Source: Pseudomonadota bacterium (GTDB lineage: Bacteria; Pseudomonadota; Gammaproteobacteria; UBA9214). Taken from it: DNA of 64,000 nt. The notes beneath the pieces are model-generated. The model was not told the origin of the DNA, made no database searches, and saw only the letters and a program-made list of their open reading frames with translations. Location: contig JBDLIH010000006.1 of the NCBI GenBank assembly GCA_039714975.1, positions 9,325-73,324 on the forward strand. Reading direction: 5' to 3'. Position numbers and translations under genes: made by a program. Of the stretch, positions 22,361 to 31,171 are shown piece by piece. Numbering within the stretch: the first letter of the stretch is position 1; each line of letters begins with the position of its first letter.

Positions 22361-22425
22361 TGTGAATATGTCACACTATTCGCGTGAATACCTCATACCT
22401 GCATGTGGCCTCCCATTACTATCCT
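22361..22425 (+). promoter_or_regulatory. Double-box promoter P1 (TGTGA-N5-TCACA, 7 nt, CGTGA-N5-TCATA, 22 nt, TATCCT)
   Basis: Same architecture at 23371, 30004 and 31107. Confidence 0.6.
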
Positions 22426-22431
22426 TAGGTT

Positions 22432-22561
22432 ATCAGGGATTGACGTCATGGATGACTGCCAGGGATGGCAACCCATGACTTTTGATTATGGAGGTAACTC
22501 TGCCGCATCTGCGAGCGAAGACCTGACCGGGAGCCGGTGCGGACACCTGAGGAATGAACAA
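22432..22561 (+). promoter_or_regulatory. GGA-hairpin-rich leader (putative CsrA/RsmA-binding RNA)
   Basis: Seven GGA in 130 nt, e.g. GTCA-TGGA-TGAC, TGCCA-GGGA-TGGCA, GGTG-CGGA-CACC. Confidence 0.55.
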
Positions 22562-23182
22562 ATGGGCAAGGAAGATCTCATCTTCTTCGCAGACAATGAC
22601 CCGCAGACGTCCAGTCAACACTGCGTAACACTTGATCGTGCAGGCTACACGGTCAAGCGCTGCCCGTTGAACATCCTCGCCAACACCCTCAACGGCACGC
22701 TGCAGGGTATTGTGGTACTGAACCTGGGCAGTAACGTGAAGGCCGGCCTGGAGACCCAGCAACAGCTGATTGCCGATGGCCGTGCGTGGCCGGTCATTTT
22801 TATCACCGACTGCGAGCAGATACCCGAGGCGGTCAAGGCCATGAAGGCAGGCGCCACGGACTTCCATGTGACATCCGTTTCTCCCGGGAAACTGCTGCAC
22901 AGCGTCCAGGAGGCCATGTTGCAACTGGATGCCGAGAAAGACCTGCAGTTACGTCGCACAGGCATAGAGCAACACTACATAAACCTGACCCGACGTGAGA
23001 AGGAAATCATGGAATACGTTACCAACGGGGTAACCAATCAGGACACTGCGCAGCAACTGGGTCTCAGTATGCGCACCATTGAGGTGCATCGCTCACGGAT
23101 TATGGAAAAAATGGGGGCAAGGTGCCTGGCCGATCTGACACGCATGGTCGATCTGTGCAGACTGTGCAGCAGCAATCACTGA
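22562..23182 (+). CDS. FixJ/LuxR-family transcriptional regulator with degenerate receiver domain
   Basis: PVIFIT...AVKAMKAGATDF receiver-like region; LTRREKEIM..V.NG.TN...A.QLGLS.RTIEVHRSRIMEKM LuxR HTH; start 22562 chosen over the upstream ATG at 22403. Confidence 0.85.
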   Translation: MGKEDLIFFADNDPQTSSQHCVTLDRAGYTVKRCPLNILANTLNGTLQGIVVLNLGSNVKAGLETQQQLIADGRAWPVIFITDCEQIPEAVKAMKAGATDFHVTSVSPGKLLHSVQEAMLQLDAEKDLQLRRTGIEQHYINLTRREKEIMEYVTNGVTNQDTAQQLGLSMRTIEVHRSRIMEKMGARCLADLTRMVDLCRLCSSNH

Positions 23183-23207
23183 CAGCCGCCGCATCTGCAA
23201 CCCCGGC

Positions 23208-23295
23208 ACAAACAAAACGGCGACCCGTGAGGGCCGCCGCTGAGGAGCAACTATGAAAAAAACAACAACTACACTGTAGCGCGTAACCCTCAGCA
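23208..23295 (-). ncRNA. Candidate small RNA on the minus strand (ends approximate)
   Basis: Minus-strand terminator CGGCGGCCC-TCAC-GGGTCGCCG-TTTTGTTT with no minus-strand CDS upstream; GU-rich tract and CUCCUC motif. Confidence 0.4.
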
Positions 23296-23370
23296 GCACA
23301 ATACGTATATACACGTACTCCGAAAGTCACACGAAATAATTCTGCCTGAAGACCACCTGCCATGCCCCAC

Positions 23371-23434
23371 TGTGAATAAATCACACCTGCCATGTAACTA
23401 CTTCATACCCGTCCTGCACCGGAATCACTATGCT
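23371..23434 (+). promoter_or_regulatory. Double-box promoter P2 (TGTGA-N5-TCACA, 7 nt, TGTAA-N5-TCATA, 21 nt, TATGCT)
   Basis: Aligned with P1/P3/P4; directly upstream of the small ORF at 23473. Confidence 0.6.
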
Positions 23435-23472
23435 GATATCAACAGGACAGTATAAACATGTAGAGGTGTACC

Positions 23473-23715
23473 ATGGCTATAGCGAATAGAGATGTCGAAA
23501 TAATATTGCATGTTGACGAAACGCTGGGGGTATCCCGCCGCAATGATCTGACCAATGCATTAAAGAGCAAGGCCGGTATCAGATCGGCAGAATTCTGCCC
23601 GTTACGCTACCACCTGATGCTGGTCAGCTATGATCGGGACAACCTGACATCACAGGACATCCTGCATCAGGTCACCAACCAAAATGTGCATGCCCAGTTA
23701 ATCGGGCCCGTATAA
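23473..23715 (+). CDS. Small HMA/ferredoxin-fold-like hypothetical protein, paralog 1
   Basis: 80 aa, GAGG RBS, pattern LHV..AL...GI....F...HL..VSYD; clear similarity to ORF 30100. Confidence 0.75.
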   Translation: MAIANRDVEIILHVDETLGVSRRNDLTNALKSKAGIRSAEFCPLRYHLMLVSYDRDNLTSQDILHQVTNQNVHAQLIGPV

Positions 23716-23890
23716 TATCCAGCATAACCCGGTCAGGGAGGAGACACCGGTTGATGGACAGGATGTCCTGATGCCGGTGGCATTTTTGTCATCAGGTCCG
23801 GGGCTGCCACAGGAACAAACCAGCTTGTTATTAGCCTGTATCTGCTCCATTATAAACAGCACTCAAGCAAGCATGCCATGACATAGCTAC

Positions 23891-29623: not shown

Positions 29624-29662
29624 CGGATGTTTGGTAATAATAGTAAATACAAGGAGAACGTT

Positions 29663-29911
29663 ATGTCAGATGATAATACGATAAGCATTAATTTGAAATT
29701 TAACAAGAATCTGAAACTGAAGGAAATAGTGCACATATTCAAGGATAAAAACGGGAACGAGAAAAGCAAGAAAATAAAGGCGAAAAAGAAATTCAAAGTT
29801 GACTTCGACAAGGTCGATGCGATGTGCGATGTGACCCTCATAAGAGGCGAGATCGCTGGCGTGGACCCCTACTGCATCAAGGTTGGCGGGACGCTGTACT
29901 GTTTCCCGTAA
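29663..29911 (+). CDS. Small Lys-rich hypothetical protein with C-terminal Cys pair
   Basis: AAGGAG RBS, 82 aa, ends DPYCIKVGGTLYCFP; AT-rich relative to neighbours. Confidence 0.6.
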   Translation: MSDDNTISINLKFNKNLKLKEIVHIFKDKNGNEKSKKIKAKKKFKVDFDKVDAMCDVTLIRGEIAGVDPYCIKVGGTLYCFP

Positions 29912-30003
29912 ACCGGATATTCGTTTATCCACATGCCGACAGGGACGCCGGCAAGTGTAATTACTCGCTACCTTCAGTGCCCACCCGCTTCATCCTCTCT
30001 TTT

Positions 30004-30068
30004 TGTTAATTTTTCACAGTTAATTTGTTGCATAAGTCATAGCTGCGCTTCCCTTGCCTGCATAGACT
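30004..30068 (+). promoter_or_regulatory. Double-box promoter P3 (TGTTA-N5-TCACA, 7 nt, TGTTG-N6-TCATA, 21 nt, TAGACT)
   Basis: Aligned with P1/P2/P4; directly upstream of ORF 30100. Confidence 0.55.
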
Positions 30069-30099
30069 GTCTGCAGGTTTACCACACGGGGGAGAGATT

Positions 30100-30348
30100 A
30101 TGGGAATCGTACAATTTCACAGCAAGCAATCAGACCTGGTGTTGCACGTAAACGACCAGGTAGGTGATGTACAACAGCGTGACATTGAATCAGCACTTGA
30201 GGAAAACCCCGGTGTTGTTAATGTGGAATTTACAGAAAACCGTCCGCGCCTGATTCACGTCAGCTATGATCAGGATGAAACAAGCTACATTGAAACTCTT
30301 GAGCGACTTTGCAGCCAGAACGTGCACGCGCAGCATATGGGTGACTGA
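30100..30348 (+). CDS. Small HMA/ferredoxin-fold-like hypothetical protein, paralog 2
   Basis: 82 aa, GGGGAG RBS; shares LHV, AL...G, EF, VSYD.D, QNVHAQ..G with ORF 23473. Confidence 0.75.
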   Translation: MGIVQFHSKQSDLVLHVNDQVGDVQQRDIESALEENPGVVNVEFTENRPRLIHVSYDQDETSYIETLERLCSQNVHAQHMGD

Positions 30349-30406
30349 TCGGTAGAGATATACCTGCAGGAGCACCTTGCAGAGAGTTCTGGATTCCAGG
30401 GAATAC

Positions 30407-31051
30407 TCACCAGCCGTGCGGTAATTTTTCCTTGATGACAATATGCTTTTTGTTAACCTCGATATAACCGCCCGTTTTTAACTCCTTCAGGATCCGGCTC
30501 ACCATCTCCCGTGAGGCACCCACACGGTTGGCAATATCCTGCTGGGTTAACGCTTCCCTGACAACCAGGTTATCACCCTCCTCTACAGCCAGCTCCAGCA
30601 ATACCCGGGCGACCCGGCCATAGACGTCCATCAGGGCCAGACTGCGTACATTGTCCGTCAGTGCCCGCAGCCGCTTGATGAGGCCACACATAATCTTGCG
30701 CATGGCGTCCCGGTGCAGGAACAAAAACTCGTCGAAGTCCGGCCTGGAAATGATAACCATCTTGCTGTCTTCAATCGTCATGACCGATGCAGAACGGGGA
30801 CCGGAGTCCAGTAGCGCCATTTCCCCGAAATAGTCCCCGGCGCCCTGATTATTCAGAATAACCTCCTTGCCCTCATCGTCATTCAGGAACACCTTGACCC
30901 GGCCTGACAGAATGCAATAGAGGGAGTCGCTGATATCCCCCTCATTGATAATAATGGTATTGCGGGGATAGTGACGGGTGACAGCCTTGCTGGATAGCGT
31001 CTTCAGCTCCGCTTCTTCCAGATCTGAAAACAAGGGAATATTCGGTAACAT
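30407..31051 (-). CDS. CRP/FNR-family transcriptional regulator
   Basis: cNMP-binding cassette GDYFGEMALLD..PRSASV; HTH LTQQDIA..VGASREMVSRIL. Confidence 0.94.
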   Translation of the reverse strand: MLPNIPLFSDLEEAELKTLSSKAVTRHYPRNTIIINEGDISDSLYCILSGRVKVFLNDDEGKEVILNNQGAGDYFGEMALLDSGPRSASVMTIEDSKMVIISRPDFDEFLFLHRDAMRKIMCGLIKRLRALTDNVRSLALMDVYGRVARVLLELAVEEGDNLVVREALTQQDIANRVGASREMVSRILKELKTGGYIEVNKKHIVIKEKLPHGW

Positions 31052-31106
31052 GGTTAACCTGTTTTTCTGTTTATCGAACCAGTCTCGGGCCAAATTATAA
31101 TGAAAA

Positions 31107-31171
31107 CGTGAATATTTTACACTTTCCGTGTGCATTCCTTGACAGCCATCACAGAAATTCTGAACCATAAT
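31107..31171 (+). promoter_or_regulatory. Double-box promoter P4 (CGTGA-N5-TTACA, 7 nt, TGTGC-N6-TGACA, 21 nt, CATAAT)
   Basis: Aligned with P1-P3; lies just upstream of the GGA-hairpin RNA and divergent from the CRP/FNR gene. Confidence 0.55.

Follow-up and report, generated by a model that had tools for sequence, protein, structure and literature searches.

CRP and Vfr read TGTGA half-sites, which are contacted by residues of the recognition helix, and in both proteins and their relatives the half-sites are separated by a spacer of 6 bp. In the class II geometry, the activator site lies near position -41.5 and overlaps the -35 element; the known tandem (class III) CRP promoters have wider site spacings than the arrangement reported below. 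The activation of RNAs which titrate CsrA is otherwise known for GacA/UvrY, and the GacA box is the 18-bp sequence TGTAAG-N6-CTTACA. Here we describe four double boxes (P1 to P4) with half-sites of the type TGTGA-N5-TCACA, which lie close to the gene of a Crp-like receptor for cyclic nucleotide monophosphates (cNMP). They are found in a stretch of 64,000 nt, referred to as the window (assembly GCA_039714975.1, contig JBDLIH010000006.1, forward strand, 9,325-73,324), from a Pseudomonadota bacterium (GTDB Gammaproteobacteria; UBA9214). We consider it likely that these boxes are tandem, phased sites at which the Crp-like protein activates local promoters, two of which would produce candidate CsrA-binding RNAs.

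A related system has been described in Sinorhizobium meliloti. Clr is a Crp-like, cyclic AMP-dependent activator which acts together with CHASE2 adenylate cyclases (CyaD1, CyaD2 and CyaK); its direct targets include the FecR-domain protein SMc02177 and the TPR protein SMb20495, and the Clr box TGTT-N8-AACA, relaxed to HGTYHCNNNNGRWACW, is 16 bp long and has CRP geometry (PMC5498481). A comparable linkage of CHASE2 cyclase, FecR-TPR protein and Crp-like regulator exists in the window and in the related genomes G012, G048, G052 and G001. Unlike the Clr box, the local box is a 15-bp TGTGA-N5-TCACA sequence which occurs in tandem, and FecR and TPR domains are fused in one protein of 1105 residues; moreover, the passages of the Clr study consulted here mention no GGA-rich RNA target (PMC5498481). 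With CRP and Vfr, the local system shares the cNMP-binding domain, the Crp-type helix-turn-helix, a recognition helix of the Vfr pattern, the TGTGA/TCACA half-sites and, relative to the putative start, a class-II-like position of the proximal site. It differs from CRP in the length of the site (15 bp), in the 5-bp spacer, and in being centred on a base pair; in addition, the protein coexists with a canonical Vfr-like protein, and the regulon is local rather than global. In contrast to tandem CRP promoters, the second site is here only 22 bp upstream, near -64. The RNA downstream of P4 resembles the Csr/Rsm RNAs (CsrB, CsrC, RsmX, RsmY, RsmZ) in that it is short, ends in a terminator, and carries GGA motifs partly in hairpin loops, but its promoter possesses Crp-type N5 boxes and not the 18-bp GacA box. 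In a genome scan allowing up to two mismatches, the 18-bp GacA pattern gave no match at P1 to P4. A crude genome scan for GacA boxes followed by GGA-rich sequence yielded nothing convincing, a result which leaves room for Gac-controlled RNAs in this genome. The open-access literature contained no case of direct Crp-type activation of Rsm RNAs that we could find, and the N5 motif was not found in open-access full texts (main texts, without supplements). For Yersinia, a connection of Crp with CsrB/CsrC levels has been reported (PMC3523269).

The four double boxes were read exactly at the coordinates given by the original prediction (Table 1). All are intergenic and on the plus strand, and they share one layout: a 15-bp TGTGA-N5-TCACA box with zero to two departures is followed by a 7-nt gap, a weaker second box, a stretch of 21-22 nt, and a hexamer of the TAnnnT type. 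The proximal boxes comprise 15 nt in P1 and P2; in P3 and P4 they comprise 16 nt, an alternative reading being a 15-mer with offset 23. Relative to the putative start sites, which were placed by means of the hexamer, the strong distal box is centred at about -64 and the weaker proximal box at about -42. With its centre some 42 bp upstream of the start deduced from the conserved TAnnnT, the proximal box thus takes the position of the -35 element. This layout fits a tandem, class-II-like activation. For the comparison of sites we used alignment A1, which consists of 10 sites, four from the window and six from relatives.

Table 1. Features of the locus and their positions in the window. A1 is the alignment of 10 sites; putative -10 hexamers are deduced from the layout.
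Feature	Position	Strand	Remarks
P1 double box	distal TGTGAATATGTCACA 22361-22375; proximal 22383-22397	+	sequence read
P1 putative -10, TATCCT	22420-22425, 22 nt past proximal box	+	TAnnCT column invariant or nearly so in A1
P1 putative transcription start	~22432	+	from hexamer position
P1 leader, 130 nt	22432-22561	+	three GGA motifs near 5' end, one in GCCA-GGGA-UGGC hairpin
FixJ-like LuxR/GerE response-regulator gene, downstream of P1	22562-23182	+	GerE 68 bits; Response_reg 26.4 vs cut-off 30.2
P2 double box	23371-23385 and 23393-23407	+	sequence read
P2 putative -10, TATGCT	23429-23434, 21 nt past proximal box	+	A1
80-residue protein gene, P2 target	23473-23715	+	no Pfam match; about 9 paralogues in own genome
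CHASE2-domain class III nucleotidyl cyclase gene	23891-26146	+	CHASE2 7.6e-35; Guanylate_cyc 2.2e-10
1105-residue FecR-domain and TPR protein gene	26306-29623	+	domain match
Lysine-rich open reading frame, 94 residues	29627-29911		directly after FecR-TPR gene; no family match
P3 double box	30004-30018 and 30026-30041	+	lowest matrix score of the four, 19.6
P3 putative -10, TAGACT	30063-30068, 21 nt past proximal box	+	A1
82-residue protein gene, P3 target	30100-30348	+	paralogue, 34% identity to 80-residue protein
Crp-like cNMP-binding regulator gene, proposed binder	30407-31054	-	cNMP_binding PF00027 9.8e-26; HTH_Crp_2 PF13545 1e-16
P4 double box	31107-31121 and 31129-31144	+	distal right half-site is TTACA
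P4 putative -10, CATAAT	31166-31171, 21 nt past proximal box	+	A1
Candidate small RNA of P4, ~145 nt	31178-31321	+	5 GGA motifs; conserved GGC-AGGGAN-GCC hairpin
Intrinsic terminator of P4 RNA	31297-31321	+	terminator search

In order to assess how specific these sites are, the window and the complete genome (G000; a 3.37-Mb assembly of 164 contigs, 93.6% complete) were scanned. Note that the degenerate pattern of the distal box was taken from the four sites themselves, and that the weight matrix was trained on 10 sites including these four. With at most one mismatch, this site-derived pattern matched four sites in the window, compared to 0.19 expected from 100 shuffles. The weight matrix, applied to both strands of the genome, gave the four sites (all part of the training set) scores of 50.0, 43.9, 40.7 and 19.6, the next best match scoring 16.7. 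Pairs of boxes at offset 22 in the plus-strand arrangement occurred seven times genome-wide, these four included, and the other offsets between 12 and 44 gave counts of 0 to 4. Single boxes were not enriched across the genome: there were five perfect N5 sites, two of them local, versus one to three at other spacers. Apart from the four double boxes, the 3.37-Mb genome has no sites of this kind; the regulon therefore appears to be confined to one locus and not to be global. None of the other seven paralogues of the 80-residue protein gene in the own genome has a double box upstream, so that these genes fall outside the regulon.

The conservation of the motif in related genomes, which had been predicted, was analysed in a set of 37 genomes of the genus. 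Five of them contain the exact distal 15-mer of P1, each in a single copy, and it is identical in G012, G021, G017 and G052; its reversed sequence, used as a control, was found in none of the 37. A P1-type site is kept in G012, G048, G052 and G001. The sequence-only promoter model R1, made from the 10 aligned sites and applied with a cut-off of E <= 1e-4, detected seven sites outside its training set (in G043, G048, G021, G015, G001, G011 and G017) and had matches in 11 of the 37 genomes. The Crp-like family was found in 20 of the 37; R1 matches occurred in 10 of these 20, compared to one of the 17 genomes without the family (G015). No p-value is given for this association because the relatives are not independent. 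The geometry given in the original prediction is supported: a box offset of 22 bp together with 21-22 nt to the TAnnnT hexamer is found in all 10 sites of A1, where A66 and T70 are invariant, and the same layout recurs in six of the seven further sites of the genus. The 5-bp spacer is present in the four distal boxes of the window and in 17/17 distal boxes of the genus; positions G2, T3, A5, A6, T7, T11, A13 and C14 never vary among these 17. Also the genes around the boxes are conserved. The order rmuC-P1-LuxR-type gene-cyclase-FecR-Crp-like gene-dehydrogenase is kept in G048 and G052 and, distributed over two contigs, also in G001; G012 has retained the part between P1 and the Crp-like gene, but its rmuC and dehydrogenase genes are located elsewhere, on contig C188.

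The evidence which carries most weight for the identity of the binder comes from other genera. From more than 597 loci with homologues of the Crp-like family, 80 loci (561,644 bp) were drawn, the sole criterion being a homologue of the local Crp-like protein. They stem from uncultured Gammaproteobacteria, Burkholderiales, Competibacteraceae, Acidiferrobacterales and Desulfobacteraceae; one isolate, Exilibacterium tricleocarpae, is among them. Perfect TGTGA-N5-TCACA sequences were found at 11 sites in 10 of these loci, an N6 spacer occurred once, and N2, N3, N4, N7, N8 and N9 were not observed at all. Six of the 11 perfect N5 sites are positioned 154-194 nt upstream of the start codon of the Crp-like gene. 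Many of the distant sites show the complete layout of distal box, 7 nt, proximal box, 21-22 nt and TAnnnT, pointing away from the Crp-like gene. If one mismatch is tolerated, the distant loci contain 27 N5 sites; a second box with up to four mismatches follows at offset 22 in eight of these, at offset 23 in three, and at any other offset in zero to two. Sixteen of the 80 loci have, divergent from the Crp-like gene, a near-full-length CHASE2 cyclase, which in 12 of these 16 is followed by a FecR homologue. These findings indicate that the N5 spacing is a genuine trait of the Crp-like family. The original prediction had left the binder open between the local Crp-like protein, the local LuxR-type protein and a GacA-like regulator. 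As N5 follows the Crp-like homologues across genera, the local Crp-like protein or its paralogues are the best candidates; the LuxR-type protein lost ground, since a LuxR homologue was found in none of the 80 distant loci, and so did the GacA-like regulator, as the boxes are 15 bp long and not of GacA-box form. The further proposal that one activator binds two sites in phase was borne out to the extent that the 22-bp offset recurs in A1, in the genus sites, and in 8/27 distant sites.

The Crp-like protein itself has the build of the CRP/FNR family, namely an N-terminal cNMP-binding beta-roll and a C-terminal Crp-type helix-turn-helix. Against the CRP equivalog model NF008732 it reached 135.9 bits at a cut-off of 266; by its sequence, it is a member of the CRP/FNR family and not CRP proper. 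Its recognition helix SREMVSR aligns with SREMVGR of the Vfr structures 2oz6 and 7ff8 (R-E-x-x-x-R pattern) and would therefore fit a TGTGA half-site. The own genome encodes a second paralogue with the helix SRAMVSR (contig C24) and a canonical Vfr-like protein with an S-R-E-M-x-x-R helix, the gene of which is located next to trpC on contig C89. Vfr-like genes with 36-40% identity to the query occur throughout the genus. A GacA equivalog is found on contig C48 (289.8 bits, cut-off 280). Both the Vfr-like protein and GacA are ranked below the Crp-like family as binders, since it is the Crp-like gene which the N5 motif accompanies from genus to genus. The C24 paralogue (G000:C24:3991-9564) adjoins genes for a cNMP-binding protein of about 156 residues and for a protein of about 910 residues with a cNMP-binding domain; this arrangement is common to the Crp-like genes with 60% identity in G017 (C17, 14913-19710) and G021.

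Based on these data, the following mechanism can be envisaged. A Crp-like subfamily would read TGTGA/TCACA half-sites which are one base pair closer than those of CRP, the 15-bp site being approximately TGTGAAT-A-TkTCACA. The cNMP-bound dimer would occupy the strong site first and would then help a second dimer onto the weak site, which lies on the same face of the DNA at a distance of two helical turns; this second dimer would recruit RNA polymerase in a class II manner. The CHASE2 cyclase of the cluster might be the source of the cNMP, and the FecR-TPR protein might act as its partner in the envelope. As outputs, P1 would yield the FixJ-like regulator with its GGA-rich leader, P2 and P3 the two small paralogous proteins, and P4 an RNA which probably titrates CsrA. 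Those elements of the scheme which we infer are the binding, activation rather than repression, the cooperativity, the ligand, the start sites and the binding of CsrA. The P4 double box is located 53 nt upstream of the Crp-like gene and is divergent from it. On the minus strand, TATAAT at 31094-31099 is a possible -10 element of the Crp-like gene itself. The distal box of P4 would overlap the -35 element of such a promoter, which suggests that the Crp-like gene may be autorepressed via this box.

Two of the promoters precede GGA-rich RNAs, a feature which the original prediction did not contain. The fold of the P4 RNA has a z-score of -2.62. Homologues from G000, G011, G013 and G016 are about 120-165 nt long, possess four to six GGA motifs and have a conserved terminator; in the four aligned sequences the GGC-AGGGAN-GCC hairpin is invariant, and the terminator shows one compensatory change. 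RNA model R2, which represents the P4-type small RNA and was made without the promoter, added a single strong copy, that of G019 (E = 2.5e-15), again with a P4-type double box upstream. The RNA is thus known from five genomes, with a P4-type box upstream of each. As in the window, where a short-chain dehydrogenase gene follows the P4 terminator, the copies G011:C23, G013:C97, G016:C35 and G019:C11 are located just upstream of the short-chain dehydrogenase gene. The P4 RNA has traits of the Csr/Rsm type, namely exposed GGA motifs and an intrinsic terminator in a genome with csrA; five csrA genes with matches over the cut-off were found. The P4 RNA therefore probably titrates CsrA. In the P1 leaders, which come from six genomes, the three GGA motifs are invariant in 6/6 sequences and fall within the first 42 nt, and the alignment of these six sequences showed no covariation; the leader is a candidate CsrA-binding leader. 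Within the window, no Rfam family reached its gathering threshold, the Csr/Rsm models included.

Other regulators were considered as readers of the boxes. The Vfr-like protein encoded on C89, a canonical CRP/Vfr orthologue, might bind them, in which case the N5 boxes would represent unusual or low-affinity CRP sites which the Crp-like paralogues do not read. The S-R-E-M-x-x-R helix is the same, the half-sites are of CRP type, and for the proximal boxes of P3 and P4 a reading as N6 16-mers is possible. Set against this are the ratio of 11 N5 sites to one N6 site near the Crp-like paralogue genes of other genera, the restriction of the sites to one locus instead of a global regulon, and the fact that the Vfr-like gene occurs genus-wide, whereas only a subset of genomes has the motif. 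We regard this explanation as unlikely, if the least unlikely of those discussed here. Next to it, and likewise improbable, we place the binding of the FixJ-like LuxR-type regulator, or of a paralogue, as a pair of dimers which autoregulates its own gene. GerE-type regulators do bind short palindromes, P1 precedes the LuxR-type gene in G000, G012, G048, G052 and G001, and a LuxR paralogue is found beside a paralogue of the small proteins on C36 and in G004. However, the distant loci combine N5 spacing and 22-bp architecture without any LuxR homologue in their flanks, and the boxes have remained nearly identical between syntenic LuxR-type genes of 35-38% identity. Moreover, the sites of G017 and G021 adjoin a Crp-like gene, with no LuxR-type gene in the sequence examined, and the receiver domain of the local protein is below the Pfam cut-off.

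The GGA-rich RNAs behind P1 and P4 and the GacA equivalog of the genome also call to mind the Gac system: the boxes might be a lineage-specific upstream activating sequence of GacA/UvrY, and the RNAs ordinary Gac-controlled Rsm RNAs. The half-sites TGTAA/TTACA of P4-type boxes resemble the ends of the GacA box, and there are P4-type boxes which have no Crp-like gene next to them. Yet the boxes span 15 bp and not the 18 bp of the GacA box, N5 follows Crp-like genes in loci which were chosen without reference to Gac, P2 and P3 drive protein genes, and R1 found the motif in no more than 11/37 genomes of the genus. In our ranking this possibility comes third and is improbable as well. Finally, the likeness of the four regions could be the relic of a duplicated promoter-gene cassette, without a common regulator. 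P2 and P3 do precede paralogous genes, but their products have only 34% identity while the boxes were kept; P1 and P4 precede unrelated products, and the same architecture exists in other genera. This last explanation is therefore very improbable.

Several observations weigh against binding and activation by the Crp-like protein as proposed here. Regulators which use N6 have the same recognition helix, so that nothing in the sequence accounts for N5. The distal box is asymmetric: the left AAT is invariant, and the mirror position is G or T. The 80 distant loci are mutually related and do not represent independent cases. Within the genus, half of the family-encoding genomes (10/20) lack an R1 match at the cut-off, and G015, which is 83% complete, has a good site (E = 1.3e-6), although a search with this query did not reveal the family there. 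The flanks of 10 genus loci, eight with the SRAMVSR paralogue and two with different Crp-like genes (about 53% identity), showed no N5 enrichment (one perfect relaxed site, the same number as at other spacers). In the closest relative, G012, three of the 15 positions of the P4 distal box are changed and the downstream RNA is gone; at P2, the same genome has lost the stretch containing the distal box, and the small gene downstream has an internal deletion. With respect to the RNA, the best sub-threshold Rfam match of the P4 transcript was rsmX, with 14.4 bits and E = 2.3 at a threshold of 56. Finally, G016 and G019 have the P4 box and the RNA between rmuC and the dehydrogenase gene, and no Crp-like gene adjoins them, an arrangement which the original prediction did not cover.

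Because of the latter arrangement, the local protein may not be the one which reads P4. The right half-site TCACA occurs in none of the six P4-type distal boxes, whereas the other genus sites have TCAC[A/T] in 13/13 cases. All five genomes with the P4 RNA encode the SRAMVSR paralogue; a helix of the SRA type is present in only two of the 80 distant loci. The presence of this paralogue in all RNA genomes, together with a P4 half-site which is never TCACA, provides a lead: P4-type boxes may be read by the SRAMVSR paralogue, rather than or besides the local protein. It seems that the RNA locus is ancestral and that the cyclase/Crp-like cluster was inserted beside it in the own genome. The homology of G012 to the window stops just before the -10 element of P4. 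A comparison of contig C188 of G012 with window positions 21048-32147 showed that rmuC there adjoins the dehydrogenase gene, with only a remnant of the terminator in between. Since G012 has its cyclase/Crp-like cluster on a different contig, the 9-kb module resembles a movable islet in its behaviour.

An RmuC gene is located upstream of P1. The regulator encoded downstream of P1 gave its best matches, below the cut-off, with TtrR/FixJ models, and the GacA model scored 37.9 bits; judged by its sequence, the local LuxR-type protein is FixJ-like and not GacA. Visual inspection of its receiver domain suggested an asparagine (VVLNLG) where the phospho-acceptor aspartate is expected; the syntenic LuxR-type proteins of G048, G052 and G001, which have only 35-38% identity, look like ordinary receivers. 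The 94-residue open reading frame behind the FecR-TPR gene was not found in the relatives examined. Homologues of the 80-residue protein are encoded downstream of double boxes in G004, G021, G017 and G043. In the own genome, further paralogues of this family of about 80 residues are found on contigs C36, C1, C50, C42, C39, C25 and C10, with no match in Pfam or NCBIfam. In the protein atlas, the family falls into uncharacterised clusters, and the nearest named ones carry HMA (12% of members) or YajR_YAM. Its members often adjoin FixJ-like regulators. On G000:C39 (about 29230-29400), a direct repeat of about 20 nt, ATATTGTGATATATGYCTTTT, precedes a paralogue of the family in two copies whose starts are 33 nt apart; this repeat is a candidate for a different control element.

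A wider proposal, which we consider somewhat short of an even bet, is that the local protein belongs to a large subfamily of uncultured Gamma- and Betaproteobacteria and some Desulfobacterota, which would combine the helix of CRP with a shifted dimer geometry. Such proteins would be insulated from the CRP/Vfr protein of the same cell and would form, with a CHASE2 cyclase and a FecR-TPR envelope protein, a self-contained second-messenger circuit. This circuit would operate via phased tandem sites near -64 and -42 and would, in this genus, feed into the Csr network by means of CsrA-titrating RNAs. The CRP family is the textbook case of recognition by half-site and spacer. If the proposal is true, a branch with a 5-bp spacer shows by what means cross-talk between paralogous cNMP receptors is avoided within a cell, and it offers structural biology a natural variant of the dimer geometry. 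For the module of CHASE2 cyclase, FecR protein and Crp-like regulator, which is common in uncultured proteobacteria, the boxes are a first candidate for a DNA motif and a regulon, and they suggest that a cyclic-nucleotide signal could lead directly to the production of RNAs which sponge CsrA.

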